A stretch of DNA of 64,000 bases from Candidatus Magasanikiibacteriota bacterium (lineage in GTDB: Bacteria > Patescibacteriota > Patescibacteriia > Magasanikbacterales > UBA922), in contig JBPOIO010000004.1 of the NCBI GenBank assembly GCA_052034405.1, positions 751-64,750 of the forward strand, in the 5' to 3' direction. The position numbers and the translations under genes are program-made. Positions 13,099 through 27,540 of the stretch are shown here, piece after piece. Within the stretch, counting starts at the first letter, position 1. Each line of letters starts with the position of its first letter. The notes below the pieces were generated by a model. The model was not told the DNA's origin. It made no database searches and worked only from the letters and a program-made list of their open reading frames with translations.

Positions 13099-13112
13099 AT
13101 CTCCAATTCCAT

Positions 13113-13184
13113 GCACTCGTCGTTCAATGGATAGGACGCTAGTTTGCGGAACTAGCAATCTAAGTTCGATTCTTAGCGAGTGCA
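13113..13184 (+). tRNA. tRNA-Arg, anticodon GCG (read from loop TTGCGGA)
   Basis: 72-nt cloverleaf folded by hand. The acceptor stem GCACTCG/CGAGTGC is perfect. The D-stem is GTTC/GGAC with GG in the loop. The anticodon stem CTAGT/ACTAG is perfect. The T-stem is CTAAG/CTTAG with a TTCGATT loop, and the discriminator is A. No CCA is encoded. Confidence 0.8.
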
Positions 13185-14669
13185 CACGTCGGGAAGTTGC
13201 GCCAAAGCGCGACTTACCTGGAACGGATACTTTGCTTCAACTAGCAGAGTTTTTTGTTTCAGCGCGAGGTTCGAGAAGAGGGTCTGGCAGACCTCGCGTT
13301 TCTTCTCGGGCTCGCCAGCTTCGAACTTTTTCTTCGCTAGAACTGCGAACGAAATCCCCTCCATCAAGGGTTCGATGAGTCCCGCGACTGGACTGGCTCG
13401 TTCCAGTTGCGCACGGAGCGCAATCTGCTCGCTTGTGAGGGCTCTGCGGTCCTCATCAAGCTCCTCGCCGGTAATGCGACCCTCAGCAGCTAGATGACGA
13501 AGGTTTCGGAGCTTCTCGTCGTTCTTCACCAGTTTCGCTTCGACCGTTTGGACGACCCTCGACTCCGAATCGCAGACCTCAGCGCGAACGCTCCTCAGCT
13601 CGTCCAGCACGGCCTCCGCTACGTCAGGCGGGAGAGTGAGATCGTTGATGCTCAACGCGAGTTGCTCTTCAAGTGACACTTGCTCGACGGACGGCTCGTC
13701 GCAGTAGAGATATGCACGACTCTTTCGGCAGCAATGGTAGTACGTGTAGCGGGTTCCGAATCGGTTGACCTTGTTCTCCGCAGTGACGACGGACGCACAA
13801 GAACCGCATCTCAATATGCCACGGTATGGAAACCGGTTCGTTTGTGGGCGCGGTTCAGATGCACCCAGGCGCTTGAACTGCTCCTGTACTTCCTCGAACT
13901 CGGCCCAGGAGACGGCGGCGGGATGCGTGCCGGGGAACGATCCCTCCTTCCGAACCATCAGCCCGGCATAGAACGGGTCGCGCAGTGTCCGGTACAACAA
14001 CGACTGGGAAATCAACTTCCCACCGTGGCTCCGCATCACCGGAGTCGTCAGGTGCCACTCCTTGCGGGCTCGGTTGAGGATATCGGACATTGGCACCCCC
14101 ATTCGCCGCAATCGAAACGCCTCTCGAATTAGAGGAAGTCGCACCGGATCAGCCAGGAGCTTCATTGTCGAACGGTCGCGGGTGTAGCCAATTTTCGGAG
14201 CACCAGGCCAAAGGCCCTGTAGCAGTGCCTGCTTGTTGCCACGACATATGTTCTTGCGGAGGTCATCAATGTCTTTCGTGGCCATCCCGAAGATGATGGA
14301 CATCATGAGCTTGTCGTCACCTGACCCAGTGAACGCCCGCTCGGGCGTGAGGATCTCCTTGATCGCTCCGGTGCCGAGCAGCCACATGATGGAGCCACCA
14401 TCGATGGGGTTCCTCGCCAGACGGTTGAGATGCCAGCACAAGACTGCGTCGGCTTTCTTCGCGTTGAGCATGGCCATGACTCTTGCGAACTCTGGCCGGC
14501 CTGGTTCCTTCGCAGACCGCGTTTCGCGGATCGGCTCCCCCACGATGAGAAGATTGCGGGCCTGAGCAAATGAGAGAAGCTCCCGCTCCTGGGCTGGTAT
14601 TGAGAGCTGCTGCTTCCCGTCGTCGAGCGTGGATTTCCGCACGTAGACTACGTATTTCAATGGGTTCAT
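13173..14669 (-). CDS. large serine recombinase (integrase) of the GC-rich island
   Basis: N-terminal resolvase catalytic motif YVRKST..QQLSIPAQ with the serine nucleophile. It also has a recombinase domain, a zinc ribbon (CGSCASV...YYHCC) and a coiled-coil. Its stop codon lies inside the tRNA T-stem. Confidence 0.9.
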   Translation of the reverse strand: MNPLKYVVYVRKSTLDDGKQQLSIPAQERELLSFAQARNLLIVGEPIRETRSAKEPGRPEFARVMAMLNAKKADAVLCWHLNRLARNPIDGGSIMWLLGTGAIKEILTPERAFTGSGDDKLMMSIIFGMATKDIDDLRKNICRGNKQALLQGLWPGAPKIGYTRDRSTMKLLADPVRLPLIREAFRLRRMGVPMSDILNRARKEWHLTTPVMRSHGGKLISQSLLYRTLRDPFYAGLMVRKEGSFPGTHPAAVSWAEFEEVQEQFKRLGASEPRPQTNRFPYRGILRCGSCASVVTAENKVNRFGTRYTYYHCCRKSRAYLYCDEPSVEQVSLEEQLALSINDLTLPPDVAEAVLDELRSVRAEVCDSESRVVQTVEAKLVKNDEKLRNLRHLAAEGRITGEELDEDRRALTSEQIALRAQLERASPVAGLIEPLMEGISFAVLAKKKFEAGEPEKKREVCQTLFSNLALKQKTLLVEAKYPFQVSRALAQLPDVCTR

Positions 14670-14685
14670 ATTGTTGTCAAGTTAG

Positions 14686-14892
14686 TTAGTCAAAGAGGAC
14701 CACGTAGAAAGCTGCCACGAGGTCCTTCGCTACGATTCTGAGCTCGGCCGGTGACAAATCCCGTGGATGGTGTGGGTCACTGCGAAGGGCTTCACCAAGC
14801 CGAATGAGGAAGGCGGCGCTGGGCTCGTAGTTGCCGAGACATGCTAACCTCATACGCTGTGATTTGTGGTCATTAGATGAGTGCATATGCAT
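14686..14892 (-). CDS. hypothetical small protein next to the integrase (possible excisionase/RDF-like accessory)
   Basis: 68-aa ORF immediately upstream of and co-oriented with the recombinase. No motif. The functional guess is by position only. Confidence 0.3.
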   Translation of the reverse strand: MHMHSSNDHKSQRMRLACLGNYEPSAAFLIRLGEALRSDPHHPRDLSPAELRIVAKDLVAAFYVVLFD

Positions 14893-14950
14893 TCATCGTA
14901 ACAACTCATTGCTTGGTCGTCCCGTCGCACCGTGATGCGAAAATGAACAA

Positions 14951-14980
14951 AAGAAGAACTCCACGACCGGAGTTCTTCTT
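14951..14980 (-). terminator. perfect 12-bp-stem hairpin (aagaagaactcc/ggagttcttctt), terminator-like on the minus strand
   Basis: Perfect inverted repeat with a 6-nt loop. On the minus strand it is followed by ttgttcatttt. It sits between the transfer-gene block and the integrase pair. Confidence 0.35.
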
Positions 14981-15242
14981 CATGCTTGTCATCTCTCTTC
15001 TTCTGCCCTGTGGATAGCGTGGTCAGAATCCGACCATCGTGCTACGGGACTACATCTTGCGGCTATGAGAAGATATACTATGTAAGCCGCGAAATCGGGC
15101 AAGACGAGAGTTTGAAAATGTCGTCACCCCAGTCTCGCGGAAATATGTGCCCTAGGCAGGCCATTCATCCCAACAAGAGAGGAGGTGACATTAGGTAGAC
15201 TACAACTTGTGCATATTCTGTCAAGTGTAGGTACCAATAGCT

Positions 15243-15944
15243 ATGACAAACAATGAATCAGAACAACGCGTGCTGAGCGAGAAATCGCTCGTGTTCAACG
15301 TGGAAGTTCTTCGCAAGAACTTCAGCAAGCACGTGGTCACGCAAGAAGACCTCGCCACCATGACCGGCGTGCCGAGGAGCGCGGCTGCGATGGAGTCCTC
15401 CCAACTGCCCGGCCGTGGTGTTCGCCGGAGTTCGTTCGTCATAGCGTGTCTGGTCAAGGTCAACGTGGGGTCGCCCTTGGGCCAGTCCGCCGGCTTCGCG
15501 TCGAAGCACCTCCTTCTCGTCCGTGGTTTCCCCGAGTCGGTTCGGGGCGGCCTTCGCCGCCTCAGATTCGGTTCGCGCGACCGGACACGACTCCGCGCTC
15601 AGCACCTGCGAGGCGTCGGGGGTCATCGTGGTGGTCGGTCGCGTCTTCACGAGCCCGACGCTACGCGCGGCGGATCGAGTGGTCGAGCGCGCGAAGGGTG
15701 CCGTGGTGTCTGCCCCTGGTGTGGCCCCCTGGTGCGAGCCCCCGGTCAGTCCGACACACCACCCCTCGGCTTCTCATCTTCTTGGAATCACTCGGTTTTC
15801 AAGGAACGCAAAACAAGGAATCAGCCCCTTCTTGGGGCATCTCGTTCATCCGGCGCACGGACGCGGACGACCGCGCCACTCTGCGCTTCCACCTCGCGTT
15901 CGCCAAGGTCCGCGAGCCGGTACCAGCCGCTCGTCAGCGCGTAG
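15243..15944 (+). CDS. XRE-family HTH regulator (N-terminal about 65 aa); the long Arg/Gly-rich C-terminal continuation is doubtful
   Basis: LRKNFSKHVVTQEDLATMTGVPRSAAAMES resembles an XRE HTH. The rest of the 233-aa frame is low-complexity, typical of open frames in GC-rich DNA, and overlaps the Replic_Relax gene on the opposite strand. Confidence 0.4.
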   Translation: MTNNESEQRVLSEKSLVFNVEVLRKNFSKHVVTQEDLATMTGVPRSAAAMESSQLPGRGVRRSSFVIACLVKVNVGSPLGQSAGFASKHLLLVRGFPESVRGGLRRLRFGSRDRTRLRAQHLRGVGGHRGGRSRLHEPDATRGGSSGRAREGCRGVCPWCGPLVRAPGQSDTPPLGFSSSWNHSVFKERKTRNQPLLGASRSSGARTRTTAPLCASTSRSPRSASRYQPLVSA

Positions 15945-16693
15945 TTCACCGGCTCGGCCTTCAGGTCGAGGACCCGGCCGAAGACCGGACCACCGATGTC
16001 CACCGCCTGGCGGCCCAGGGCGGCGAGCCGCTTCACCGATTTCGCCACGATGAGCATGCCGTCGGGGACCAGGCCCGCGATCTCCATGCGCGCGGCGTGC
16101 ATCCGGGCGAAGAAGGCGATCTTGTTCTCGGCCACGTACTGCGGCCCCTCGGTGCCCGTGTCGATCTCCACGACGAAGCTGCGCCGGCGCTCGGCGTCCT
16201 CGACCGTGAGGACCGCGTCGGGCCTGTACTTGAGGATGGTCGGGAGGTGGGCCTGGTCAAGCTCCCACTCGAACTGGTAGCGAACCAGGCGCACCCCTCG
16301 GGACAACTCGCACTCGGCCACGACCCGGCTCCAGAAGCGGACGTTCATCAGGTGGTGCTCGCCCGGACCCGAATACTCGGCCGGCGCGCTGCGGGGCCTC
16401 TCGTCGAGGCCGAGGTCCTCGAAGAGCGCGATCTGACCCTTGCGGTCGAGCACGTACCGCGTCTCTTCGTGCAGCGCGTTGCAGTACCCGGCCAGGTACC
16501 CGGTATCCATGAGCTTCTTGAGTCGCCGGCGGGCCATCGCCACGGACGGGAAGTAGAGCGGCACGACGTCGGACACGGTGAGCACCTTGGCCTTTCGGAG
16601 GGCCTCGAAGAGCGCGAGGTCGCGCTCCTGGAGATCAGCCGCGCGTCCGGCGCGGCCGTTCCCCGATTGCCTGCCGAGTCCACGTCCCGCCAT
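15821..16693 (-). CDS. replication-relaxation family protein (Replic_Relax-like)
   Basis: N-terminal wHTH-like LQERDLALFEALRKAKVLTVSDVVPLYF...ARRRLKKLMDTGYL, then a conserved core (EWELD, YRPDAVL, FVVEIDTGTE) as in plasmid/ICE replication-relaxation proteins. Confidence 0.55.
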   Translation of the reverse strand: MAGRGLGRQSGNGRAGRAADLQERDLALFEALRKAKVLTVSDVVPLYFPSVAMARRRLKKLMDTGYLAGYCNALHEETRYVLDRKGQIALFEDLGLDERPRSAPAEYSGPGEHHLMNVRFWSRVVAECELSRGVRLVRYQFEWELDQAHLPTILKYRPDAVLTVEDAERRRSFVVEIDTGTEGPQYVAENKIAFFARMHAARMEIAGLVPDGMLIVAKSVKRLAALGRQAVDIGGPVFGRVLDLKAEPVNYALTSGWYRLADLGEREVEAQSGAVVRVRAPDERDAPRRG

Positions 16694-16705
16694 GAGTGTG
16701 AGCCG

Positions 16706-17026
16706 CTACACCTTCGGGTTGACGATGGACACCCCGCAGGTGTGGCAGTTGACGTAGGCGGGCGCGGTCTTGCAGGCCGGGCAGGCCGACCACACCCAGC
16801 CGTCGCGCGTGGCGCCGCAGGTCGAGCACTCCCAGAGCCCGTCCGCCGGTTGGGGCGGGCAGCCCCGCTTGCACTTCAACTCGCGCTTGACCACGGCCAT
16901 GCCGACCTTCCCGGTCTTGTAGGTCCACTTGCCAAAGGAGATCAGCTTGAAGAGCGCGGCCAGCGAGAAGACCACGGCCGCGTACATGAGCTGAAACGGC
17001 GCCAGAATCCAGCGAAGTTCATCCAT
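16706..17026 (-). CDS. small membrane protein with C-terminal Cys-rich zinc-ribbon-like domain
   Basis: It has one TM helix followed by CxxC...CxxC...CxxC spacing (CSTCG, CPAC, CHTCG). Confidence 0.4.
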   Translation of the reverse strand: MDELRWILAPFQLMYAAVVFSLAALFKLISFGKWTYKTGKVGMAVVKRELKCKRGCPPQPADGLWECSTCGATRDGWVWSACPACKTAPAYVNCHTCGVSIVNPKV

Positions 17027-17050
17027 GCCTTGCCCTCTTTCGAGTTGTTT

Positions 17051-19075
17051 CTATCCGATGAACGGCCCTCTTCGCGTCCGGTTGCCCTTGGGGCTCTGGC
17101 CTTCGTGGCCCTTCTCCTCCTTTCCCGTAGCCCGTTGCCCATCGCCCAGGGGGACTGGCGGCGGAGCCGTTTGGCCGCCAGGTTCGCGTTTGGGTTGCTG
17201 CTCGTCTGGCCGAGGCGCAGCCTCGACCTCCTCTTGTCGCCCCTCAGATTCCTTCGCTGGCCGCGGCCTCACCTTGCCCGGAGGTGGCCGCTGCGGATTG
17301 CGCCGATCAGGCTTCGAGCCTGGCTCCCTGACCTCGTGGGGCACCCGGTCGCGCAGATCGCGCCTCGGGTCGCGAGCGAAGCCGCCCGCCACTTCCTTGA
17401 TGTGGTGCTTGCGCTTCTCGATGGCCTCGTTGAGGACGTGCGCTGGCGTGCCGCAGCCGTACCCACGGCACAGGGCGCGCAGCTCGTCGGAGGCCCGGTC
17501 AGCGGCCCGGCGCAGATCGTCGAACGGGACCTCGGGCGCAATGAGCCGTGCTGCCGGCCGCCCCAGCGCCCGCGGGTAGAACCAAAAGTGGCGCTTCGGC
17601 AGACGAATCAGCTCTTCGACGTGGCGCGCTCGCTGCTCGCTGGGGCGCTCGACGCGGGTCTCGTAGCGTGGGCCGTCGAGATCTCGCCGAACGCGGCAGT
17701 GCTCCGAGACCGGGAACATGTGGGAGAAGCGCCGGGCATCGCTCGGCGACTGCTGGAACACGGTCTGGTAGCCGCAGGAGTTCTCGATGGTCGCGAGCAG
17801 CGCCGAGCTGCGGCTCGCCACCTGCGCCGGCAACTGGTTGATGAGCCAGAGCGCCACGTTCTTGTGCCGGGCTAGGGTGAGCAGGCTCTCGAAGTCGCCG
17901 GCCAGGTCCGCGTCGAGACCCAGCCACCACTCGTCGATGGCCGCGATCACGGGCCGGCGGGTATCACGTCGGGAGTAGATGGCCCGGGCAAGCCCACGCA
18001 CGAAGACCGAGATCCAGAACCGGGTCAGGAACTCGGCGCCGCGCGGAGCCCCGCCCAGGTTGACCACGGTGAGCGGCCCTTCAAGTAGGGAGGCATAGGA
18101 CACGCACCCTGGGGCGCAGAGCACGCGCGCCGTATCCTCGAAGAGCAGCAGGTCGAGCCGGGCCACCACGGCCTGCACCGACTCGGTCGGCTCCTGCGGG
18201 AACCGGTGGGTGAAGTACTCGCGGATCTCATAGTCCTCGACTTCCCTGAGGAGGCCGTTCAGGTACCGGTCGTTGATGAGCGCCGAGCGCAACTCGAGGA
18301 TGGACAACCCGCCGACCGAAAGCATGAGGCGCAGGGCGTTGAGGAGAATCCCCATCATCCGGACGCCCCAGTCACCCCCGGCCCCGCCGAGGGCCTCCCC
18401 GATGAGGTTGGCGATCTCCTTGGCGTGAAGCGAGCGCGAGATGCCGCCGACGGGAGCAAGCAGGTTCATTTCCGGGAGGTTGCTTTCGTCGAAGGGCGCG
18501 ACGACGTTCAGGCCACGAATGACCTCGATGATGTCGTCTTCTTCAGCGTCTCGGAGCATGGCCGGGAGGAGCAGATCGGTGATCCACTCGGCGCTCTCGC
18601 CCTTGGCGTCCACGTGCAAGAGGGACCACGGCATGCCCGGCCCGATGAGCTGCATCTCCTCGGCGAAGGTCTGCGCGCTCTTGCCCCGGCCCGTGGCCCC
18701 GACGATCCAGCGGTGGACGCCGTACAACTCCGAGACCGGTACGGCGACCGGGATGTCCTCGGCCTCGGCCAGGGTGCCCACGAGGACGCGAACACCATCC
18801 TCACCGGCCCGCTCGTCGAGATCGTTCAGAAGGTGGACTTCAGGCGGCGGGTCGAGGCTCTCAAAGTGGTGCTCGATGGCCGCCTCGACCAGCTTGCGCT
18901 TGGAGCCCACGAAGAGCCGCCGAAGGCCGGCTTCGAGCAGGCTCACGAGAGGATCCGCGTTTGCTGGAGAAAGAGGCGCATGACGACGCTTGCTCCTGGT
19001 TGCCGAGCCCCTGCCCGGGCCACGAAGCAAAGCGTAGGACGATTTCCGGGATCCGCAACTTTTTTTCTGAAGCAC
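17051..19075 (-). CDS. FtsK/TraD/VirD4-like P-loop ATPase (type IV coupling-protein-like) with Arg/Pro-rich C-terminal tail
   Basis: Walker A is GATGRGKS and Walker B is VIAAIDEWW. A WLINQLPAQ motif resembles the T4CP Q-motif. The TraM-recognition-like C-region is low-complexity. Confidence 0.5.
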   Translation of the reverse strand: MLQKKSCGSRKSSYALLRGPGRGSATRSKRRHAPLSPANADPLVSLLEAGLRRLFVGSKRKLVEAAIEHHFESLDPPPEVHLLNDLDERAGEDGVRVLVGTLAEAEDIPVAVPVSELYGVHRWIVGATGRGKSAQTFAEEMQLIGPGMPWSLLHVDAKGESAEWITDLLLPAMLRDAEEDDIIEVIRGLNVVAPFDESNLPEMNLLAPVGGISRSLHAKEIANLIGEALGGAGGDWGVRMMGILLNALRLMLSVGGLSILELRSALINDRYLNGLLREVEDYEIREYFTHRFPQEPTESVQAVVARLDLLLFEDTARVLCAPGCVSYASLLEGPLTVVNLGGAPRGAEFLTRFWISVFVRGLARAIYSRRDTRRPVIAAIDEWWLGLDADLAGDFESLLTLARHKNVALWLINQLPAQVASRSSALLATIENSCGYQTVFQQSPSDARRFSHMFPVSEHCRVRRDLDGPRYETRVERPSEQRARHVEELIRLPKRHFWFYPRALGRPAARLIAPEVPFDDLRRAADRASDELRALCRGYGCGTPAHVLNEAIEKRKHHIKEVAGGFARDPRRDLRDRVPHEVREPGSKPDRRNPQRPPPGKVRPRPAKESEGRQEEVEAAPRPDEQQPKREPGGQTAPPPVPLGDGQRATGKEEKGHEGQSPKGNRTRRGPFIG

Positions 19076-19116
19076 GCGCCAGGAGGAATGTGAGGCTGCG
19101 GGGACGGACGCCGGAA

Positions 19117-20121
19117 CTACGAGAGAAGAGCAAGAACGCCTTCGAGTTCGCTCCGGAGTGCCTTCTTCTCGGCGTCCGACAGCTCCTTGGCGTTGAACTT
19201 GACGGGGCGCAAGCGCACGTCACCGATCTTCAGGTTGGTGCCGTCCGAGCGGAAGATGCTCGGGAGCGACTTCTTCTCCGATGCGCCCCGGAACGCCTCA
19301 TTGACGTGCCGAACGATCTGCGGGATGGAGAGTTCCTCGTTGTTGATGCGCGTGACCCACTCGATGTAGTGGAGCTTCGGGTACCTAGCCTTGAGCTTCT
19401 TCAGGGTCAGGGCATGGGTCGCCTTGAAGGTGGTCCCTTCCTCCCCGATGGCCGTCTGCACCTCAGCCGGCAGGTCGAGGAGCGCCAAGAGGTTGTTCTT
19501 CTGGCGCTTGGTGAGGTTCATGAGCTCAGCGACCTCGAAGCTCTTGTACCCCGAGTCCTGGTACCGCTTGATCACGTAGGCCCGGTCGATGTCCGAGTAG
19601 GTCTTGCGGGCCATGTTCTCGAGGACCGAGGCCCGGAACGCCTCCTGGTCGTCCACCAGGTCCCGGCGAACGTAGGCGGAGATGAAATCCGCCTTCAGCT
19701 CAGTGAGTGCCGTAGCCCGACGGAAGCCCGAGACGAGCTGCCACTTGAACCCGTCCTCGGGGCGCGGGTGAGGACGAACGACGGCCGGGATCTGCTGACC
19801 ACTCTCGCGGATGCTCTTGACGAGGTCGGCCACCCGCACGACCGCTCGGAAGCGGTACGTCACGTCGCCGAGGTCGATTTCGCTGAGCGGGACCTGACGA
19901 ACCACCAAGTCGTTGTCGAGGACCGTGGGGACGTCCACTGGGACCCGGCTCGCACCAGGCGGACGACCGCGGCGCTTCGCCGCAGATGGAGCGGCCTCGG
20001 TTGTGGGAGCGGGGGGCGTCGGCTCGGGTGTGGAGGTTTCCATGACCCTACTAGACGGAGCCTTCGCGGCGACTTTGCGATCTTTTTTCAACTGGCTCGG
20101 TTTTGGTGCGGGTCGGGGCAT
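19117..20121 (-). CDS. ParB/Sulfiredoxin-domain protein (ParB-like partition/nuclease)
   Basis: N-terminal ParB motif (LSEIDLGDVTYRFR ... VSGFRRATAL) followed by HTH-like and C-terminal helical regions. The N-terminus is Pro/Ala-rich. Confidence 0.65.
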   Translation of the reverse strand: MPRPAPKPSQLKKDRKVAAKAPSSRVMETSTPEPTPPAPTTEAAPSAAKRRGRPPGASRVPVDVPTVLDNDLVVRQVPLSEIDLGDVTYRFRAVVRVADLVKSIRESGQQIPAVVRPHPRPEDGFKWQLVSGFRRATALTELKADFISAYVRRDLVDDQEAFRASVLENMARKTYSDIDRAYVIKRYQDSGYKSFEVAELMNLTKRQKNNLLALLDLPAEVQTAIGEEGTTFKATHALTLKKLKARYPKLHYIEWVTRINNEELSIPQIVRHVNEAFRGASEKKSLPSIFRSDGTNLKIGDVRLRPVKFNAKELSDAEKKALRSELEGVLALLS

Positions 20122-20182
20122 GATTATCTCCGCAGGTGATTGTGGAGAAGGTCATACGCCGACGAACAAGTGGCCGCAAGGT

Positions 20183-20999: not shown

Positions 21000-22005
21000 G
21001 ACCAGAATGAAAATTCGTGACGCAGTCGAAGCAGCGCATTCCGTGAACGACGGGGCAACCGTAGTTGCCCCCCTAGATCTCGGCGGGAACGAGCAGAACC
21101 AGCTTCTGATGTTCCTGAAACCGGAGACCTTCCTGAGCAACGATAGGGAAACGCCAGCAACGGTGGCCGATCTTGCTGACCGCCTCATCAACTCGTTCCG
21201 ACTGCGGATGTCTGGGATCATCGGAGTGTCCGGGCCGACGCTCGGGTCACTCCGTGCAATGGACAAGCACTACGGCTTCATCAACAAGATGTCACGGGCT
21301 GCATCCGTCTCGCTGGATGCCAAAACGCTTGAAGGTCTTCGGTCCCGGTATGCCACTGGACCGGATGGCGCGGTTCTGGGTGGCCACGAGTTCCTTGAGC
21401 GTCATCAGGACTGGGATGCCCAGAAGCTGGACACGCTGTGGGCGACGAAGAAGAGCGACCGAATTCGAAGTGGCCTGTATGCTCAGCTCTACGACATTCC
21501 CGGCACTGGACCGACCATCCTGCTCAACGGCTTTCATCCTGCACAACTTGAACACTTCACTGCGCCAGGTCGAAAGGTCATCCTGATCGTGCTGAACAGC
21601 GACCTGCCCTGGTCTGTTCTGCGACGACGGATGCTCGGTGACACCTTCCCGGAGAAGGCGGTTGCGGGCTCGTTCAGGCGCGCACTCTACGACACCCGAG
21701 AGAAGTTGGGCTTGCCGGACGTCTCAATCGCCAACAATTTCGCGCATCTCTCGGCTGGACCATTCGAAGCTGCGTTTGAACTGAACAACTTCCTCGGATC
21801 TGTCTGCCCAGACCAGTTCACAATTGCGAACAGCCGATTGTGGAAGCACGGCCTGCGAATCGGGTTGACCAACGACCAGTTGGCTGGGTCACTCAACAAT
21901 CCGCCCGTGGAGGTCGCTGGAACGCGGCTTCCGCTCTTCGACGCTACCGAAGATTGTGACTCGCTGACCTCTCTTCAGCTGCTGGCATCGCACGGCGCGG
22001 GCTGA
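20971..22005 (+). CDS. nucleoside-diphosphate-kinase-like protein with an approximately 70-aa insertion (start probably at Met 21007)
   Basis: By-eye alignment to Ndk. LMFLKPETF matches IIKPNAV. FHPAQLEHFTAPGRKVILIVL matches FF.GLVEFMTSGPIVV.VL. RRRMLGDTFPEKAVAGSFRRALYD matches LLGATNPA.ALAGTLRADYA. NNFAHLSAGPFEAAFEL matches NGTHGSDSVESAAREI, with the catalytic His retained. Confidence 0.5.
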   Translation: MPCITATYTRTRMKIRDAVEAAHSVNDGATVVAPLDLGGNEQNQLLMFLKPETFLSNDRETPATVADLADRLINSFRLRMSGIIGVSGPTLGSLRAMDKHYGFINKMSRAASVSLDAKTLEGLRSRYATGPDGAVLGGHEFLERHQDWDAQKLDTLWATKKSDRIRSGLYAQLYDIPGTGPTILLNGFHPAQLEHFTAPGRKVILIVLNSDLPWSVLRRRMLGDTFPEKAVAGSFRRALYDTREKLGLPDVSIANNFAHLSAGPFEAAFELNNFLGSVCPDQFTIANSRLWKHGLRIGLTNDQLAGSLNNPPVEVAGTRLPLFDATEDCDSLTSLQLLASHGAG

Positions 22006-22018
22006 ATCGAGGCGACCT

Positions 22019-22873
22019 ATGGCGTCAAGTGCACCACGCGGCTGGCTCGGAAAAACGGCTGGCGTATTTAGCCTACACGAGTCTGACCGTACGTGCGGAT
22101 CGTATATTTCTATCCGAGACGCTGCCACGATTCTAAAGGTCGACCCTGCCGAACTCGACCACTACCGGCTCGCACAGCACGGCGAGCAAGATTTCACGAC
22201 AGACAAGACGCTTGGTCGCGCATGGGCTTCTGGCCAGATCACGAGTCCTCGCACATCCATGCGGCGCGGAAATTCCATGGTAAGTTTCGACGAACTCATC
22301 GTGCTCACTCTCATTGAGTTGACCTTGCCTGGTGCAGCCGTTCATCCGCAAAAAGAGGTTGATAGGTTCCTGATAGACTTTCTCGTGGAACACAATGGCG
22401 TAACAATTGCGCTTGAGTTTTGCGGACCGCACCACTTCATTCGACGACACCCAGGAGAGCGCACGCCCCTGGACCCGCGTGTTCGCGCTGAGCGCATTTC
22501 GCGGCTGCTGAACGTCGAGTGCGTTATCTGGCCGTATTGGGTCCAACGATGTGAGTCAAACGTCCGAGCCCTTTTTGATTCCTCAGTGCGCGGAATCGCC
22601 AGCGTTTGGTCAACAAGCGCCCAGTTCGGCAACTTTTCATTTCCTGACTCTCACAAAGTGATTCAGGACATCAACGCGCGCTTTCGAGTGGAACGGGAAA
22701 CTGGCATCGGGTACATGTACACTGACGAAATCGTGAGCAAGCCAGTGCACCCCGTGGTCTCCCAGATTAGACGGGGACGGGAGTCCGTTTCAAAACTCGT
22801 CCCGCCCGGTTCCACATCGTCGAAGCGATACTGGGTTCCACGGGTGCTTTGGTCCGTAATCGACGGTGGCTAG
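22019..22873 (+). CDS. DUF559/Vsr-like restriction-endonuclease-fold protein
   Basis: DRFLIDFLVEHNGVTIALEFCGPHHF followed by DPRVRAERISRLLNVECVIWPYW matches the DUF559 pattern (DF..x..L.iE.DG..H ... D..R...L...G..V.R). The usual Asp is replaced by Cys (EFCG). Confidence 0.45.
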   Translation: MASSAPRGWLGKTAGVFSLHESDRTCGSYISIRDAATILKVDPAELDHYRLAQHGEQDFTTDKTLGRAWASGQITSPRTSMRRGNSMVSFDELIVLTLIELTLPGAAVHPQKEVDRFLIDFLVEHNGVTIALEFCGPHHFIRRHPGERTPLDPRVRAERISRLLNVECVIWPYWVQRCESNVRALFDSSVRGIASVWSTSAQFGNFSFPDSHKVIQDINARFRVERETGIGYMYTDEIVSKPVHPVVSQIRRGRESVSKLVPPGSTSSKRYWVPRVLWSVIDGG

Positions 22874-24641
22874 CATGACTGACGACTTTCACGTCGACGC
22901 CGGCCTAATTCAAGCAGCGCAGGCGCTGGCGCGCATCATGCGAGAGCAGGAGTTCTGCCTCTACCTAACCGGGCTCGCCGCGTCAGGGAAGACCGCCGCA
23001 GCAGAAATCATTTCGCGGATGACGGGTGTGCCCGTTGTTGACTCCGGCCTGGTATTCCGACTCGCTGCCTATCTTTGCGTACATGTTCCTGTCGCAGCAG
23101 AGAATCCGGGCGTGCTCGCCCGCCTCTTGGGTGAGCACACAATCAAGGTCGTGAACGGGCAATATCGAATTCTGTCTGGTGACTCGGACATTACGGAGAG
23201 ACTTCAGGCGCCAGATGTCGGCTCTCAGGCGACTGCAACGGCCGCGGAACCTAGACTTCGAGAAGTGATTCTTACCTTTCTAAGATCTAGGACGAAGGCG
23301 CCAGCCATCGTGGCTGCACGCGGCGTTACTGAACCACTCACAACAGGAAACTTCGTTCAGATAGAATTGCGAGCAGACCTAGAGGTTCGCGCGGCTCGGC
23401 GCGCTAAGCAAAGTGGTTCGCCAGTTGCTACGATTCGAAAGAGCATACGAGCTCGAGACGACCGCGACCAACGCGGCCCGTCACGGTATCCAAGCGCTGA
23501 CTTTGTTGACAGTTCGAAACTGACCCTTCATGAGACCGTAGCCCGAGTTGTTGAAAGAACGACCGCGCGGATTTCTCGCCTTCTGAGCATCTCTGAATTT
23601 AGGAAAGTTGAGTTCAACAACGCTGAACAGCTGAGCAACCCCTTGCTTGTACGTCTCTGGGCCGAAGCACAGGCAGGACTTGAGGAGGAAGAAAGCACAC
23701 AGGGCATCCCGAAGGGGCACGCGAAAGCACGTTTTCTCCTCAATCTCTCGCGTTACTCGTCGCTGGATCTACTGGGACTGTCGCATTCATGGATGCCTGG
23801 GGCTCTGCCGGGACTTGTGGACACAGCCGCTGCTGTCCCCGCAAACGACTTGCTGATGCGCGAGTGTGCTAGAACGGTGGAAGAGCGGGCCAAGTCGATT
23901 CGGCGATTCATGGAAGCGACACGCTTTCCGAGTGCTATTTTTGATGAAAGATCCCTTCGGCTTGAGCTTGTTCGAGGGCGACCAGTGGGGACCTCGGAAG
24001 GTGGAGAGGTGGTAGAACACTATCACCTCCGTGACACGTCCCCAGAAGTCGGCATGTGGCTCGAAAACAATCTTCACTACTTAGGTGCAGCACGCCTCGA
24101 CACCACTCATAGAGTCGCGCTTGTAGAAGCGTCGAGTGAATTTCCTGTCCTGTACTTGTCATTCGCTCCAAACACTCGCAAGTACATGGAGCCGCTCCTG
24201 TGGCGAGTCGGACTCAGGTTAGAGGAGGTTGCTGTCGCAGTACGTGGCTACGGAACGCCCCGTTGTCCTCGGAATGCGATGGCATGGTTCCTTCGTGAGG
24301 CATGTGCTCGGGTCAAGCAAGACTTTCCACATCTCCGTGCCGTTGTCACAGACATCAACCCCAACTGGGGCTTCAGCGGATCGTCCTTTCAGGAGGCCGG
24401 ATTTGTCACGTTGGGAATGAAGTACGCTCCCACAAGCTTTGTCGCGGGCGATTATTCCCCGCGACGGAGCCTCGAGCGCCAACCCGGAAGCCGCGCGGCA
24501 GTTGGGAACAGACTGCCGCTGGTTCCAACGTTGGTCATGATTAGGCCATTTCCCAAGGAATCCATTCTTCGAACACGTATTGCAGAGTCGGTGGTTGATG
24601 GTGTATACTTGATACCTCGGGACTTGTATGAAGAAAAATAG
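22866..24641 (+). CDS. cytidylate-kinase-like P-loop kinase fused to a C-terminal GNAT-like acetyltransferase domain
   Basis: N-terminal about 235 aa align by eye to Cmk: LYLTGLAASGKTAAAEIISRMTGVPVVDSGLVFRLAA versus ITIDGPSGAGKGT...LLDSGAIYRVLA; LSGDSDITERLQAPDVGSQATATAAEPRLRE; IRARDDRDQRGPSRYP versus IKERDDRDRNRAVAPL. The C-terminus has a GNAT-like motif A (VRGYGTP) and NPNWGFSGSSFQEAGF. Confidence 0.55.
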   Translation: MASMTDDFHVDAGLIQAAQALARIMREQEFCLYLTGLAASGKTAAAEIISRMTGVPVVDSGLVFRLAAYLCVHVPVAAENPGVLARLLGEHTIKVVNGQYRILSGDSDITERLQAPDVGSQATATAAEPRLREVILTFLRSRTKAPAIVAARGVTEPLTTGNFVQIELRADLEVRAARRAKQSGSPVATIRKSIRARDDRDQRGPSRYPSADFVDSSKLTLHETVARVVERTTARISRLLSISEFRKVEFNNAEQLSNPLLVRLWAEAQAGLEEEESTQGIPKGHAKARFLLNLSRYSSLDLLGLSHSWMPGALPGLVDTAAAVPANDLLMRECARTVEERAKSIRRFMEATRFPSAIFDERSLRLELVRGRPVGTSEGGEVVEHYHLRDTSPEVGMWLENNLHYLGAARLDTTHRVALVEASSEFPVLYLSFAPNTRKYMEPLLWRVGLRLEEVAVAVRGYGTPRCPRNAMAWFLREACARVKQDFPHLRAVVTDINPNWGFSGSSFQEAGFVTLGMKYAPTSFVAGDYSPRRSLERQPGSRAAVGNRLPLVPTLVMIRPFPKESILRTRIAESVVDGVYLIPRDLYEEK

Positions 24642-24644
24642 CCT

Positions 24645-25217
24645 ATGAGAATCCTTGTAGCCACCCGCAACAGGGACAAATTCAATATCGTCAAGCGCCT
24701 GGTAGAAGCAACTGTGCCGGACGCACATCTTGTTTTTCTCGGCGACACTCCGATCAGCGGAGACGTTGTTGAAGCAGGGTCAATCCACGAACGCGCCCGG
24801 CAAAAGGCAGTGTACTTTTGGGGGCGCTTGGAGTGGTCTACAATAGCCGACGACTTCGATTCAGTGCTGGCGGTGGACGACGGGCTGAGCGTCGGCGGCG
24901 CGGAAGCCACGCCTCACTCCAAAGAGATGACAGAACGAATACTCAGTGAGGCGTGGCCAACGGGAACTAAGGTGGATGTCGTTCGCGCGTTTTGCCTGAT
25001 AAGGCGTGGGGAAGTGCCGCGTGTGGAACTCACGGCGATCCCGTTTGTATTTGTAGGCAATCCACATGGCGTCCAACGTGAAGACGGTACGTATCCGTTG
25101 AGCCAGGTCCTTAGCCCCGAGGGAATGGCTCAACCAGTGTCTCAACTCACAAACGATGAAGAAGATGCATTCTACCTTCGCCACTCTCGGGAGCCGCTCG
25201 TTGCGCTGTTCTCATAG
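24645..25217 (+). CDS. Ham1/ITPase-like (RdgB-family) non-canonical NTP pyrophosphatase-like protein
   Basis: MRILVATRNRDKFNIVKRLV versus MKIVFATGNKGK; TIADDFDSVLAVDDGLSVGGAEAT versus AIADDSGLAVDVLGGAPG. It starts 4 nt after the upstream stop. Confidence 0.5.
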   Translation: MRILVATRNRDKFNIVKRLVEATVPDAHLVFLGDTPISGDVVEAGSIHERARQKAVYFWGRLEWSTIADDFDSVLAVDDGLSVGGAEATPHSKEMTERILSEAWPTGTKVDVVRAFCLIRRGEVPRVELTAIPFVFVGNPHGVQREDGTYPLSQVLSPEGMAQPVSQLTNDEEDAFYLRHSREPLVALFS

Positions 25218-25260
25218 TGATCGGCACCCCAAATCATGGACATTGGCAATCAAGTAATTG

Positions 25261-25297
25261 CTCGACCAGGGTCCTGACTTCTATCCTCGCTGTGCAC
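25261..25297 (+). repeat. 37-bp direct repeat copy 1 (CTCGACCAGGGTCCTGACTTCTATCCTCGCTGTGCAC), candidate att/junction site
   Basis: 33 of 37 positions are identical to 27494–27530. Weaker similarity extends about 14 nt upstream. It contains a GTGCAC core. Confidence 0.6.
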
Positions 25298-25385
25298 TAA
25301 CCGTGAGCATGTCGAACTGAGCATGCTCTAACGAAACATCGCGTAATTGCGATGTTTTCATTTTCTAAGCAGTCGTTCGAGCACG

Positions 25386-25401
25386 CGGGAAATCGACTTC
25401 C
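25386..25401. promoter_or_regulatory. second copy of the GGGAAATCGAyTTCCC palindrome (one mismatch) upstream of the PD-(D/E)xK gene
   Basis: GGGAAATCGACTTCCC, about 57 nt upstream of the ATG at 25458. It is adjacent to the palindrome GAGCATGCTC at 25311–25340. Confidence 0.35.
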
Positions 25402-25457
25402 CAGCAATTCGAACAGGGCTTGTTGGCCTTTCTCTGATATGGTAACATTTAACTAAT

Positions 25458-26291
25458 ATGTTGAAATCACACATGGCTGCCCGCGAGGGCGTACTGCTTG
25501 CCAGCAGTAAGGTCGCAGCAAATACAGGGCATTCGCTTCATAAGGGAACGCCTCGCGAGATCTTTATCCGCGAGTTCCTGGAAAGCCATCTCGCCGAGAC
25601 CGTCGCGATCGGCACTGGCGAAGTGATCGACTCAGAATCGATGCCGAATCCGCCACCGACAAGACAGCGCAATCAGTACGACATCATCATTTACAAGAAG
25701 AATTATCCAAAACTCGCCATCGGCGGTGGGATCTCGGCGTTTCTTTGCGAGTCGGTTGTAGCGACAATCGAAGTGAAATCCACTCTCACTAAGGATGAGC
25801 TACAATCGAGTGCAAGAGCCGCGCGAGCTGCGAAGCTACTCAAACCCAGTAGAGTCGAGGCTTTCAGGACAGGCTACCACCCGCCGTCGATCTTGAACTA
25901 CGTCGTGGCATATGACGGACCTGCATCAATGAAGACTGTGGCCGGTTGGCTACAGGATGCTGACGCGTACGCTGGAGTGCCAGGGCATCCGGATCTAAGT
26001 GGTGCCGACAGAACTCAGAAGGCGAGCCCGAGCCTCGATGGCGTGTTCGTGATGGGCAAAGGGTTCATGTTGTACGGCAATTCACCACTTTCTATTCTTT
26101 CGGTGGACGACCGCAAACGTGCGTCGAACCTCAAATGGGAATTCGCTGACTGCGAAGTTGGAAGTCTGTTCTTGCTATTCGTAACGTTGAGCCAAGTCGT
26201 GAGTGGGCACTCTGCGACCTGGCTCGACGCTGGGCCATACCTCAGCGGATTCTCTGTCCAAAATGATTCAATTGGCATGGTCGGCTGGTAG
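25458..26291 (+). CDS. PD-(D/E)xK nuclease-fold hypothetical protein
   Basis: DIIIYKK ... ESVVATIEVKST gives the D...(E)xK arrangement typical of restriction-endonuclease-like folds. No closer family recognised. Confidence 0.4.
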   Translation: MLKSHMAAREGVLLASSKVAANTGHSLHKGTPREIFIREFLESHLAETVAIGTGEVIDSESMPNPPPTRQRNQYDIIIYKKNYPKLAIGGGISAFLCESVVATIEVKSTLTKDELQSSARAARAAKLLKPSRVEAFRTGYHPPSILNYVVAYDGPASMKTVAGWLQDADAYAGVPGHPDLSGADRTQKASPSLDGVFVMGKGFMLYGNSPLSILSVDDRKRASNLKWEFADCEVGSLFLLFVTLSQVVSGHSATWLDAGPYLSGFSVQNDSIGMVGW

Positions 26292-27380
26292 TACCAAGCT
26301 CGGTTGCAGGTTATTACTGAGCTGTATGCGGAGCACTAGTTCGTCAAGTCGCATCTTCTCTTCAAGCGCGTCCATCTGTTCTGATGGCACCCCAGTTGCG
26401 CTTCTAAGCTGTGATCGAACCATCGTCTCTAGTTTCTCCGCGTCAGTGCTGAATCGACAGCCCGTTCGATGGCACCGATAATAGCGATAGACTCGTCCAT
26501 TTCTCTTCATGTGTTGTTCGCCGACAAGGAATCCCAAACAATTTGGACAAGTGACCTTTCGAGCGAGTAGGAAGTGCAAGTGCTTCCGAGGCTGCCCGCC
26601 GCTGTGCTTCTGCCGAAAGACTTCCTGGCTTCGGTCGAATATCTCCTTGGTGATCAATGATGGATGAGTACCGGTGTACTCAACACCCACGACGACCATC
26701 TTCCCCATGTAGAATGAGTTGTGGAGGATCGCACAGACCTTTGCTGCACTGACTTTCTTGCCGTGCCGGCTGACGAGGCCAGCACGGTGCAGTTCGTCAG
26801 CAAGCTGAGCGCTTCCGACTTGACCAGTGGCCCAGCGCTCGAAAGCCATCTTTATGAATCTTGCTCGGGCAGGGTCAACGACGACTTTGCCGTGCTCCTT
26901 GAGATACCCAAGAGGAGGAAGTCCACACCATCCTCCACGAAGGAGCTTCTCTTCGATCCCCCTCTTGACTTGTTGCGCCAGGTTGGCGCTGTAGAATTCT
27001 GCTTGTGCTGACATAATACGTTCAATGAATTGACCAACTGGAGTTTCTTCGCAGTTCTCCACGGCCGAAACGATTCGAACACCGTGGCGACGGAGCCGCT
27101 CCTTGATGGTCAGATAAGTAAACATGTCGCGTGCCAGTCGGTCGAGACGGTGAACGAAGAAGATGTTCACGTCGCGACTGCGACACGCAACGTCGAGTCC
27201 AGAGAGAAGGCCTGTTCGTCCACGGAATGATGTGCCACTCGCCACGTCCGTGAACGTCCCCGCAGCAACCCAACCTCGCTCAGAACAAAGTCGTCGAAGC
27301 GTGCGCAGTTGTGCTGGAATTGAAAGATCCTTCTCCCCTTGCTTGCTCGTTGAAACGCGAGCGTAGAGTATGACTGACAT
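26268..27380 (-). CDS. serine recombinase (resolvase/integrase family, 370 aa) of the sub-element
   Basis: It has the YARVSTSKQ catalytic motif, a recombinase domain and a zinc ribbon (CPNC...YRCHRTGC). Confidence 0.85.
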   Translation of the reverse strand: MSVILYARVSTSKQGEKDLSIPAQLRTLRRLCSERGWVAAGTFTDVASGTSFRGRTGLLSGLDVACRSRDVNIFFVHRLDRLARDMFTYLTIKERLRRHGVRIVSAVENCEETPVGQFIERIMSAQAEFYSANLAQQVKRGIEEKLLRGGWCGLPPLGYLKEHGKVVVDPARARFIKMAFERWATGQVGSAQLADELHRAGLVSRHGKKVSAAKVCAILHNSFYMGKMVVVGVEYTGTHPSLITKEIFDRSQEVFRQKHSGGQPRKHLHFLLARKVTCPNCLGFLVGEQHMKRNGRVYRYYRCHRTGCRFSTDAEKLETMVRSQLRSATGVPSEQMDALEEKMRLDELVLRIQLSNNLQPSLVLPADHAN

Positions 27381-27493
27381 ATGATGTTGAGTTAATGACT
27401 ACACTCTTCATCATACACCTTTGATGGTACAGCGTGATGTTCATACTGTCCCGTAGCACCGTGATTCGTTTCTGAACATCCAGTCAACATCTT

Positions 27494-27530
27494 CTCGACC
27501 AGGGTTCTGACTTCTCTTCTCGCGGTGCAC
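27494..27530 (+). repeat. 37-bp direct repeat copy 2 (CTCGACCAGGGTTCTGACTTCTCTTCTCGCGGTGCAC) at the island/host junction
   Basis: It is followed immediately by AT-rich host sequence. GTGCACAC is shared with the tRNA 3' end. Confidence 0.6.
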
Positions 27531-27540
27531 ACATAAAAAA

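Follow-up and report, generated by a model that had tools for sequence, protein, structure and literature searches.

The locus described here raises the question of how a block of GC-rich DNA came to lie directly behind a tRNA-Arg gene in a low-GC bacterial chromosome, and from where it was brought in. The window, by which we mean the whole stretch of 64,000 nucleotides analysed (contig JBPOIO010000004.1 of the assembly GCA_052034405.1, positions 751 to 64,750), is assigned by its own genes to a member of Candidatus Magasanikbacteria in the Candidate Phyla Radiation (CPR, or Patescibacteria), and the foreign block, termed element S below, occupies positions 13188-27532 (14,345 bp) at the 3' end of tRNA-Arg(GCG). 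We consider that S is a foreign, high-GC integrative and mobilizable element (IME), which would have been released from a partner element at a second recombination site named B and have integrated at this tRNA gene; we give this reading a probability of about 0.8. The contigs compared with the window are referred to by numbers with the prefix L.

Composition and exact ends of the element

The limits of S are set by four features, in which attB is the chromosomal target, attP the site on the element, and attL and attR the left and right junctions.

13113-13185, plus strand: host tRNA-Arg gene with anticodon GCG, the integration target and left half of attB (ARAGORN; Rfam RF00005, 59.7 bits)
13180-13187, no strand: common core GTGCACAC of attL, forming an 8-bp direct repeat with 27525-27532; overlap GTGCACA in L001
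27497-27532, no strand: attR, consisting of the cargo-side attP arm (28 nt, 27497-27524) and the core GTGCACAC (27525-27532)
27533-27566, plus strand: original 3' trailer of the tRNA, right half of attB, contiguous with the tRNA in L001

The windowed GC content is 38-44% up to about 13.1 kb, 51-72% between about 13.2 and 27.4 kb and 30-45% beyond; it is 59.3% for the island (13188-27524) and 39.0% for the remaining window. The GC content at third codon positions (GC3) is 0.55-0.94 in the island genes against 0.21-0.41 in twelve flanking housekeeping genes, and 2-kb windows contained entirely in the island stand at a tetranucleotide distance of 282-492 from the host, compared with about 100-135 elsewhere. 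An earlier note, made from the letters of the window, had reported an abrupt GC switch and, inserted behind tRNA-Arg, an integrative island that encodes a large serine recombinase right next to the tRNA; the switch is real, and the island is borne out by its precise ends and by the domains of the recombinase. Inside S there are three GC zones, namely 13188-15366 (55.5%), 15375-20198 (66.6%) and 20199-27524 (55.5%).

The empty site was found in L001, a contig of a metagenome-assembled genome (MAG) that was located through a scan of genome collections with the neighbouring RecG. L001 is about 86% identical to the flanks and has tRNA-Arg directly before an A/T-rich hairpin; by blastn it aligns to window positions 7471-13186 and 27525-30610 with a 7-bp overlap, GTGCACA. 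Since it matches both flanks with this overlap, the insertion is precise and comprises 14,345 bp; the search for an empty attB in a relative, a check which the earlier note had proposed, thus turned out in favour of that note. The window and L001 agree in every base of the tRNA and in the first seven of the core, and on this alignment no part of the tRNA beyond the shared core can be derived from the element. The supposition of a hybrid tRNA is not borne out, as the tRNA is base for base that of the empty site and the exchange is limited to its last bases, within the 8-bp core. The island proposed from the composition stands, and only its edges move: S starts after the core at 13180-13187 and ends at 27532, not at 27530. 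The crossover dinucleotide is probably CA at 13183-13184, i.e. the last base of the acceptor stem and the discriminator base.

ARAGORN and Rfam find a single tRNA in the window, this tRNA-Arg(GCG), at 13113-13184 or 13185 on the plus strand. Bacterial tRNA-Arg genes of the CGN box usually carry the anticodon ACG or CCG, not GCG; the empty-site tRNA of L001 (3087-3159) likewise has GCG, and the anticodon is therefore a feature of the host and not an effect of the insertion. The trailer contains an A/T-flanked hairpin (27535-27566) that is terminator-like by eye and now lies 14.3 kb from the tRNA; a terminator scan did not call this hairpin within 27533-27566. Two spots in the left flank were also noted. 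Positions 8001-10000 (RadA and the start of IMPDH) have a GC content of about 49% and a tetranucleotide distance of 198, and they are conserved in L001 at about 85% identity, and therefore native, not a second island. At 5529-7471 the window has about 1.9 kb (open reading frames (ORFs) 5011-6324 and 6318-7496), against about 0.8 kb in L001 (8789-9572), a variable spot unrelated to the island.

Two serine recombinases and the attP site

Two genes for serine recombinases lie at opposite ends of S, and the site at which S is opened in the window, site A, is the attP.

13173-14669, minus strand: LSR1, large serine recombinase of 498 aa (Pfam Resolvase 1.8e-17, Recombinase, Zn_ribbon_recom)
26268-27380, minus strand: LSR2, shorter serine recombinase of 370 aa (Pfam Resolvase 4.7e-30, Recombinase 9.9e-11)
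13188-13205, no strand: LSR1-side attP arm GTCGGGAAGTTGCGCC..., within the LSR1 coding sequence (17/18 nt conserved)
27392-27524, minus strand: displaced 3' end of the LSR1 ORF, encoding the tail ARREVRTLVEKML...SH and the stop of the 540-aa form (translation of L013)
14686-14892, minus strand: orf68, an ORF of 68 aa directly upstream of LSR1 (position kept in L013, L021 and L027)
14919-15050, no strand: regulatory region upstream of orf68 and LSR1 (repeat families D8 and I1)

LSR1 has the domains PF00239 (1.8e-17; residues 7-152, motif YVRKST), PF07508 (3.9e-06) and PF13408 (1.3e-05), all above the cut-offs, while LSR2 has PF00239 with the motif YARVST and PF07508, its Zn ribbon being below the cut-off; the two are 26% identical by BLASTP. 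As the earlier note had seen, the stop codon of LSR1 (TAA, 13173-13175) lies in the T-stem of the tRNA, more exactly in its 3' strand. The LSR1 protein gave 244 matches at about 25% identity among phage records, only the catalytic domain as sole match in the PDB, and two distant loci (43-48% identity) with no tRNA in a metagenome scan.

The relatives of LSR1 were collected by a protein search and their contigs were then compared with the window. In two Logan contigs, L013 (SRR10609169) and L017 (SRR10609165), the ends of the window element, 13180... on the left and ...27532 on the right, meet with 100% identity over the 8-bp core, which gives the attP. This form of the site is intact in three lineages, i.e. 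the window's own (L013, L017), L005-L010/L022-L027 and L028; the last two have an LSR1 gene of only 75-79% nucleotide identity, no LSR2 and other cargo beside the site. The conserved block of attP is about 54 bp long, with 17/18 nt on the LSR1 side (consensus GCGC(A/G)ACTTCCCGA(C/T)GTGTGCAC), the 8-bp core and 28 nt on the cargo side, where the arm is 100% conserved over 38 nt in L005-L010 and conserved over 30 nt in L028 before the similarity ends abruptly. The dyad symmetry of attP is best around CA, where 12/20 positions match (...CTTCTCGCGGTG / CA / CACGTCGGGAAG...), and attP (L013, L017), attB (L001) and the attL and attR of the window have only GTGCACA(C) in common. Neither attP arm has an exact match in IMG/VR.

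The attP thus found falls within the 3'-terminal part of the LSR1 gene, and integration swaps the last 17-42 codons of LSR1 for one codon and a stop supplied by the tRNA. The protein varies in length: L013 encodes 540, L022 515 and L028 517 aa, and the attL forms of the window and L021 encode 498 and 588 aa, respectively; since the tails are not conserved past the arm, the tail is probably dispensable. In the unintegrated form (gene order of L013) LSR2 starts 11 nt past the stop of LSR1, and integration splits the two genes from each other. LSR1 very likely is the enzyme acting at site A, because the attP arms are kept in lineages that bear LSR1 and are free of LSR2.

Upstream of LSR1 there is a motif of about 30 nt, GTCCCGT(A/C)GCACCGTGAT..., of which two copies (one direct, one inverted) in 14919-15050 flank a terminator-like hairpin with a 14-bp stem (14950-14981, minus strand). 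The motif recurs upstream of LSR2, where the displaced 3' end of LSR1 overlaps the upstream region and holds the third operator-like copy (27448-27478), and it is present in L005, L013 and L017 too. The product of orf68, a candidate directionality factor or regulator, has no family match in profile searches including PADLOC and PHROG. As side observations, the ORFs of LSR2 and of its neighbour, a DUF6602 protein, are convergent with a 24-bp 3' overlap (26268-26291) that is the same in L013 and L017, and the LSR1 gene of the PacBio contig L005 (6479-8026) is frameshifted near its 5' end (called as 421 aa, where the sisters have 515 aa), which is either a pseudogene or a sequencing error.

A second integration into tRNA-Arg

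An independent event is present in L021 (SRR26268931), where the gene of an L022-type ortholog of LSR1 extends into tRNA-Arg(TCT). The sequence at the junction reads ...GGTTCGATTCCTGCCGGGGGCAC / ACATCGGGAAGTTGCGCC (in short form ...GGGGGCAC / ACATCGGGAAGTTGCGCC; a slash marks the joint), with the same geometry as in the window, and past it the GC content is 41.6% and genes for XerD-like and TrmH/RlmB-like proteins follow. The LSR1 end of L021 is still attached, next to tRNA-Arg, to a backbone of the type called X below. A tRNA-Arg junction of the same geometry in L021 therefore suggests that LSR1-type enzymes target the extreme 3' end of tRNA-Arg genes, and GC-rich elements of the S family have entered low-GC chromosomes at least twice. 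With attP, attB, attL and attR all existing in natural forms, and with this second natural event, the engineered insertion that had been considered at the outset finds no support.

Near-identical copies in GC-rich contigs and site B

The contigs L013, L014, L015 and L017 jointly cover all 14,345 bp of S with two mismatches, at 17243 and 21335. These two substitutions and the lack of any amelioration of composition argue that S is not an old resident, and its arrival in the host looks very recent. In these copies, however, the order of the segments is different from that in the window: partner X is followed by orf68-LSR1, the intact site A, LSR2 and the remaining genes up to ParB-ATPase-relaxase, and then by partner Y. 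The two ends next to X and Y meet in the window at site B.

15367-15374, no strand: site B, GCGTGCCG (plus strand) or CGGCACGC (minus strand), the joined second recombination site (blastn breakpoints)
15243-15374, plus strand: 5' part (44 codons) of the gene for an XRE-type helix-turn-helix (HTH) regulator, MTNNES...VTQEDLATMTGVPR, cut off at site B

The breakpoints are at 15366/15374 of the window with L013-L015 and at 15367/15376 with L005/L006. In the GC-rich contigs the segment is opened at B and flanked by direct repeats of 9-11 bp; the junction on the X side is X...(GCG)CGGCACGCC / GGTCATGG and that on the Y side is ...GCTCCTCGGCACGCC / CGGGAAGC...Y, while in the L005/L006 lineage TCTCGGCACGC is found at both B junctions. 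Since both inner B ends are joined in the window, the island is a circular permutation, joined at B and opened at A, and the GC-rich copies are the reverse.

Site B falls in the codons for ...TGVPR of the XRE-type regulator, whose gene is cut in the window and intact in L013 and L005; the whole protein has 117/118 aa in L013, L005, L021 and L022, and that of L013 gave a sub-threshold match to HTH_3 (E 0.0027, 18.1 bits; cut-off 23). In the L014 lineage the Y flank contains a degenerate in-frame copy of the HTH segment of the regulator (...ELAHQRIEHPELCLLPGVPR). Partner X carries genes for a sigma-70 factor, a DnaG-type primase, a TrwB-type ATPase and a second Replic_Relax protein, together with small ORFs and the intact 118-aa XRE regulator, while Y carries small ORFs and a tyrosine integrase, which abuts the 3' end of a tRNA-Leu at the very end of L014. 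We read the composite as two relaxase-bearing elements, each with a type IV coupling protein (T4CP), fused at B, and the window copy as the resolved S unit.

Several other explanations of B were considered and dropped. B is not the attR of the tyrosine integrase with a copy of the tRNA-Leu 3' end, as the similarity is short and in the wrong orientation, nor a pair of nic sites of transfer origins (oriT) at which transfer would start and end, as no more than 8-11 bp are common to the copies and there is no sequence relationship between the two relaxases. Sites A and B do not seem to be targets of one enzyme either, having no similarity beyond GCAC. The truncation of the regulator at B might derepress LSR1 and LSR2, an idea to which only the shared motif of about 30 nt points. 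LSR2, site B, the circular permutation, the position of attP within LSR1 and an internal copy of the attP arm (25261-25297) were all missing from the earlier note.

Host and candidate donor

The flanks contain housekeeping genes (RecG, IMPDH, RadA, LytR/LCP, Der, TopA, GltX, ClpB, PNPase and UvrA). The UvrA of the window (59164-61989) is 91% identical to a protein of a Candidatus Magasanikbacteria MAG, and its named matches at 65-70% identity are all from Magasanikbacteria or Patescibacteria. The host is accordingly identified, on this marker, as a Candidatus Magasanikbacteria bacterium with 39% GC, to which S is foreign, as had been supposed. The titles 'uncultured Gammaproteobacteria bacterium' of L001, L002 and L003 were rejected as host identity on the basis of the UvrA relatives and look like taxonomic mislabels. 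Among the flank genes, an ORF of 534 aa (157-1761) resembles only the C-terminal half of ClpB, the full-length ClpB lying about 40 kb away (42046-44691), and is a partial paralogue or truncated gene.

On the donor side, the lineage L006-L008, which is 92% identical, continues through a tyrosine integrase and tRNA-Leu(CAA) into DNA of 72-76% GC with lysyl-oxidase, Band_7 and DprE1/DprE2-like genes; PacBio contigs of this lineage, up to 98.6 kb long, come from activated-sludge pilot plants (PMC10949500). The tRNA-Leu 3' sequence in which L014 ends is the same as in this lineage. The named relatives of the DprE1-like protein (61-67% identity) belong to Myxococcota, 'Deltaproteobacteria' and Bradymonadia. 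We consider, with moderate confidence, that the high-GC carrier is probably Myxococcota-like. An actinomycete carrier, guessed from the DprE1/DprE2 pair, was not borne out, the named relatives being Myxococcota and Deltaproteobacteria. The copies with two substitutions in GC-rich contigs and the 92% identical lineage in DNA of 72-76% GC bear out the transfer between lineages from a high-GC donor that the composition had suggested. At the far end of partner X, L022 carries a second tyrosine recombinase (566-1573; Phage_int_SAM_1 and Phage_integrase), which suggests a tandem array of elements at the high-GC tRNA-Leu locus; no copy of the tRNA-Leu 3' end was found in L022.

Mobilization genes and class of the element

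The core of S consists of four genes on the minus strand.

15821-16693, minus strand: Replic_Relax protein, a MOBC-class (PD-(D/E)xK-type) relaxase or replication-relaxation protein (PF13814, 2.7e-13)
16706-17026, minus strand: Cys-rich, zinc-ribbon-like protein of 106 aa (weak zinc-ribbon matches)
17051-18946, minus strand: T4CP-like P-loop ATPase of the TrwB/VirD4/FtsK-HerA superfamily (631 aa as called in relatives)
19117-20121, minus strand: ParB/KorB-like protein (Pfam ParB_N and HTH_ParB)

PF13814 is the MobC profile of CONJscan, i.e. the MOBC class of relaxases (PMC5357655), and is a member of the PD-(D/E)xK superfamily (PMC3424549). The relaxase of S also matches phrog_9381 (replication initiation by nicking) and phrog_9996 (unknown function), and the Cys-rich protein is always found between relaxase and ATPase in the relatives, a conserved synteny. 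The ATPase, which is 674 aa long (up to 19075) with the first possible start, gives only a Walker-A match as a sequence alone, and it has 600 relatives among 1.84 billion representative proteins. Among 52 aligned members of its family, DUF87 was matched by 39, TrwB_AAD_bind by 26, and FtsK_SpoIIIE and TraG-D_C by 22 each; the family profile matched FtsK, HerA, EccC, DotL and TrwB in the PDB, and hhalign placed it with the TrwB_AAD_bind protein of L013 at 99.8% probability. The designation 'T4CP-like' is therefore justified. Single-sequence PDB searches of the ATPase and the relaxase were uninformative, only the profile placing the ATPase, and tblastn against PLSDB gave no match to either protein at E <= 1e-5.

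Among the 13 ORFs of the island, family scans found no VirB4, no other gene of a type IV secretion system (T4SS) or mating pore, and no capsid, portal, tail or lysis gene; VirB4-type ATPase and mating-pore genes are also absent from the sequenced parts of partners X and Y. A PHROG scan of ten ORFs (both recombinases and ParB left out) gave only a weak 'terminase large subunit' match for the ATPase and the matches of the relaxase. No oriT was identified on S. With a relaxase and a T4CP-like ATPase and no mating-pore or virion genes, S is thus classified by its gene content as an IME. It would not be an integrative and conjugative element (ICE), as mating-pore genes are lacking. Elements of the actinomycete type (AICEs) transfer double-stranded DNA and have a single FtsK/SpoIIIE-type TraB and no relaxase, plus a replication gene of the RepSA/RepAM type; the ATPase family of S matches TrwB_AAD_bind and TraG-D_C as often as FtsK_SpoIIIE, and with a relaxase-class protein and a Myxococcota-like GC-rich carrier S does not appear to be an AICE.

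Proposed route of S and alternative explanations

We assume that recombination of B with B frees S from its partner, a second element with relaxase, T4CP and primase beside a tyrosine integrase at tRNA-Leu, and that, before or after this, recombination of site A with tRNA-Arg gives the integrated form. In this conservative, site-specific reaction the attP of S (site A) recombines with the 3' end of tRNA-Arg(GCG), most probably through its own LSR1. The exchange took place within the core GTGCACAC, probably at CA; the tRNA remains intact and is parted from its own trailer. Having no mating-pore genes, S might be mobilized by the T4SS of another element, or be taken up as DNA. Directly seen are the precise insertion with its empty site, the attP in three lineages, the circular permutation, the second event at tRNA-Arg, the host and the near-identity to the GC-rich copies; the enzymes at A and B, the order of events, the transfer route and the regulatory consequences are what we infer. 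A number of points weigh against this reading. The form integrated in a CPR chromosome is present in one assembled contig, and no second assembly of attL or attR was found; the attP junction at 100% identity (L013, L017) belongs to the larger composite and not to a free S circle, and an empty X-B-Y site was never seen in the contigs compared. The L005-type copies, which are without LSR2, are flanked by the same B repeats, and the enzyme of B can be assigned to none; likewise the assignment of site A to LSR1 rather than LSR2 is drawn from comparison of lineages. No sigma-70-like promoter was seen around the recombinase genes, so that their expression in the CPR cell is hypothetical, and with no T4SS on the island the transfer route is a conjecture. 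Finally, Myxococcota are suggested by a single gene, 61-67% identical to its named matches, and the lineage that carries it has 92% and not 100% identity to the window copy.

The enzyme at tRNA-Arg could instead be LSR2, or LSR1 and LSR2 jointly in the manner of CcrA/CcrB of SCCmec. The start of LSR2 is 145 bp from site A, in the unintegrated form LSR2 is almost translationally coupled to LSR1 across the 11-nt gap, the same motif of about 30 nt precedes both genes and the match to the Resolvase domain is stronger for LSR2. However, the 54-bp attP-A block is kept in lineages that bear LSR1 and no LSR2 (L005-L010/L022-L027, L028), the attL of L021 is of the L022-type lineage, whose sequenced members are all without LSR2 (the cargo side of L021 itself being unsequenced), and the module of DUF6602 and LSR2, with a copy of the attP arm on either side, seems to have been acquired later, which make a role of LSR2 at tRNA-Arg improbable. 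It is also conceivable that the composite was integrated whole and that the window copy is its deletion derivative, X...Y having been lost by microhomology-mediated deletion. The two B junctions share only 8-11 bp, neither an empty X-B-Y site nor a free S circle was found, the LSR1 end of L021 is still on an X-type backbone beside tRNA-Arg, and no recombinase is assignable to B. On the other hand, the direct repeat stands at both B junctions in two lineages that are 8-22% apart in sequence, the footprint of B has the same form as that of site A, and the degenerate HTH copy on the Y side is expected if S inserted into such a gene and brought a replacement 5' end. We consider such a deletion rather unlikely.

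An assembly or binning chimera, in which the GC-rich block would not lie within the CPR chromosome, comes to mind since the contig was assembled from a metagenome, the integrated form is seen once and near-identical copies exist in another context. We regard it as very improbable, as both junctions lie in one 8-bp core, on which the symmetry of a conserved attP is centred, L001 has the two CPR flanks directly joined, an overlap of 8 bp is far under any assembly k-mer, the block is permuted with a B junction that is absent from the GC-rich contigs, and L021 has an independent tRNA-Arg junction. Even less room is left for the remnant of a temperate phage or phage-plasmid in place of a mobilizable element, which seems scarcely tenable: prophages often carry serine integrases, 244 phage records match LSR1 (at about 25%) and the ATPase has one weak PHROG match to 'terminase large subunit', but no capsid, portal, tail or lysis gene is present among the 13 ORFs, the ATPase is of a T4CP-like family and stands with a MOBC relaxase and ParB, and the attP arms have no match in IMG/VR. 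We thus retain the reading of S as an IME released at B and integrated at A. A wider extension of it, that the S family shuttles between a CPR epibiont and its high-GC Myxococcota-like partner, with release at B derepressing the serine recombinases, is doubtful at present; if true, the tyrosine integrase and tRNA-Leu would serve in the high-GC chromosome and LSR1 and tRNA-Arg in low-GC chromosomes, and near-identical elements would be a sequence read-out of the bacterium to which each CPR lineage is attached.

Mosaic structure and cargo

The remaining features of S are the cargo and its surroundings, for which the accessory operon of the earlier note, as well as its Replic_Relax, T4CP-like ATPase and ParB-like genes, were confirmed by Pfam, family profiles and hhalign.

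20183-20198, no strand: 16-bp palindrome GGGAAATCGATTTCCC, about 60 bp upstream of ParB (also at 14006-14021 and 25387-25402)
20298-25217, plus strand: five-gene cargo operon, products of 233, 344, 284, 591 and 190 aa (Pfam, profile searches)
25261-25297, no strand: internal second copy of the cargo-side attP arm and core, 89% identical (repeat family D3)
25458-26291, plus strand: DUF6602 protein, a predicted PD-(D/E)xK/NucC-like endonuclease (Pfam DUF6602, 3.5e-22)

The palindrome GGGAAATCGATTTCCC has three matches in the window against 0.05 expected by chance, one of them inside the LSR1 ORF, and it occurs at equivalent places in relatives and in the partner element (L005 4007, 7127 and 13946; L013 7559, 10649 and 13613); it is a candidate binding site or operator of the ParB/KorB type. 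The homology to the L006-type lineage ends at this palindrome (blastn breakpoint 20198). Compared with the L005 type, the LSR1 module is 77-79% identical, the core from relaxase to ParB is 92% identical and the cargo is unrelated, and on this comparison the three composition zones match three histories.

In the cargo operon, the 591-aa protein has an N-terminal cytidylate-kinase domain (Pfam Cytidylate_kin, 4.4e-22), the 190-aa protein a sub-threshold match to Ham1p_like (E 0.013, 15.8 bits; cut-off 22.5), and there is a further sub-threshold match to REase_MTES_1575 (E 0.03). None of the five proteins matched PADLOC or PHROG, and AlphaFold2 models made without alignment for the 344-aa and 233-aa proteins had mean confidence values (pLDDT) of 36 and 43, respectively. 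The DUF6602 protein matches PD_DExK (6.9e-25) and NucC (6.6e-08) in PADLOC. The arm copies at 25261-25297 and 27494-27530 bracket the DUF6602 and LSR2 module, and the sequence left of the former copy is homologous to what precedes the arm in L005-type elements; from these two facts the module seems to have been added later, at site A. Between attP and ParB there is a slot with the kinase-like operon and the NucC-like nuclease in the window (20298-26291), AAA_21 and methyltransferase genes with those of 130-, 107- and 821-aa proteins in L005 (8613-13787), and the gene of an Mrr_cat protein in L028 (2075-5891), and it looks like a hotspot for defence or cargo genes.

Significance

Most CPR bacteria are considered obligate epibionts, their genomes being very small, and the partner is unknown for nearly all lineages. 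IMEs with a serine recombinase and a MOBC relaxase are already known, as are, from passages of a survey, modules of MOBC and T4CP in Patescibacteria (PMC12102498). What is new here is the reconstruction of attB, attP, attL and attR at the level of single bases, with tRNA-Arg as the target of a serine integrase, the attP in the ORF of the integrase, the second site with its nested or fused layout, and the near-identity to copies in a very GC-rich context. The case is among the cleanest sequence-level reconstructions of a very recent flow of DNA between phyla into a CPR cell, and it offers a testable hypothesis of physical association or of shared conjugative networks in activated sludge. The architecture, with attP in the integrase ORF and the second site in a regulator ORF, is unusual, and LSR1, with an attP of about 54 bp and a tRNA-Arg attB in two low-GC genomes (one of them CPR), is a candidate genetic tool for organisms in which such tools are lacking.

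Comparison with known systems

Large serine integrases of phages and ICEs, such as those of phiC31, Bxb1 and A118 and TnpX/TndX, use an attP of about 50 bp with an imperfect dyad and a non-palindromic central dinucleotide, while tRNA targets are typical of tyrosine integrases. LSR1 resembles the phiC31-type integrases in its order of Resolvase, Recombinase and Zn ribbon and in the short identity with attB, and differs from them in its tRNA-Arg target, in having attP in its own 3' end and in its identity of only about 25% to phage enzymes. In SCCmec, the paired serine recombinases CcrA and CcrB insert the element at the 3' end of a conserved housekeeping gene. S is similar in that two serine recombinase genes are adjacent and co-oriented in the circular form and that insertion is at the 3' end of a conserved gene, a comparison of gene arrangement and not of sequence relationship to Ccr. 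Unlike in SCCmec, integration splits the two genes, and LSR2 is missing from the other lineages with a known cargo side, whose attP is the same. Mycobacteriophages of clusters G, N and P have attP inside the repressor gene (integration-dependent immunity), and ICEclc and Tn916 have circularization-dependent expression. The recombination sites of S likewise lie in ORFs, i.e. B in the XRE-type gene and A in LSR1 and upstream of LSR2; however, those phages and ICEs use tyrosine integrases or promoters reading across the joint, with a demonstrated regulatory effect, whereas such an effect in S would follow by analogy.

Among IMEs, the streptococcal ones carry a serine or tyrosine recombinase and a relaxase, sometimes with a coupling protein (PMC5357655, PMC5704250). 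S is like them in being compact, with its own integration module, a relaxase of the Rel_PF13814/MobC class, no mating-pore genes and short repeats, and unlike them in its CPR host, its high-GC origin, its serine recombinase acting at a tRNA 3' end, its attP inside the integrase ORF and its second site B that fuses it to another element. For Patescibacteria, passages of the survey mentioned above report 109 relaxases in 103 genomes, with MOBC as the commonest class (58) and 39 relaxases beside a t4cp gene, and its authors read such modules as mobile elements acquired from other organisms (PMC12102498). S pairs a MOBC relaxase with a T4CP as these modules do, and it adds to what those passages describe (PMC12102498) an insertion delimited to the base, an empty site, an intact attP, nearly the same sequence outside the CPR and a lineage that may be the donor.

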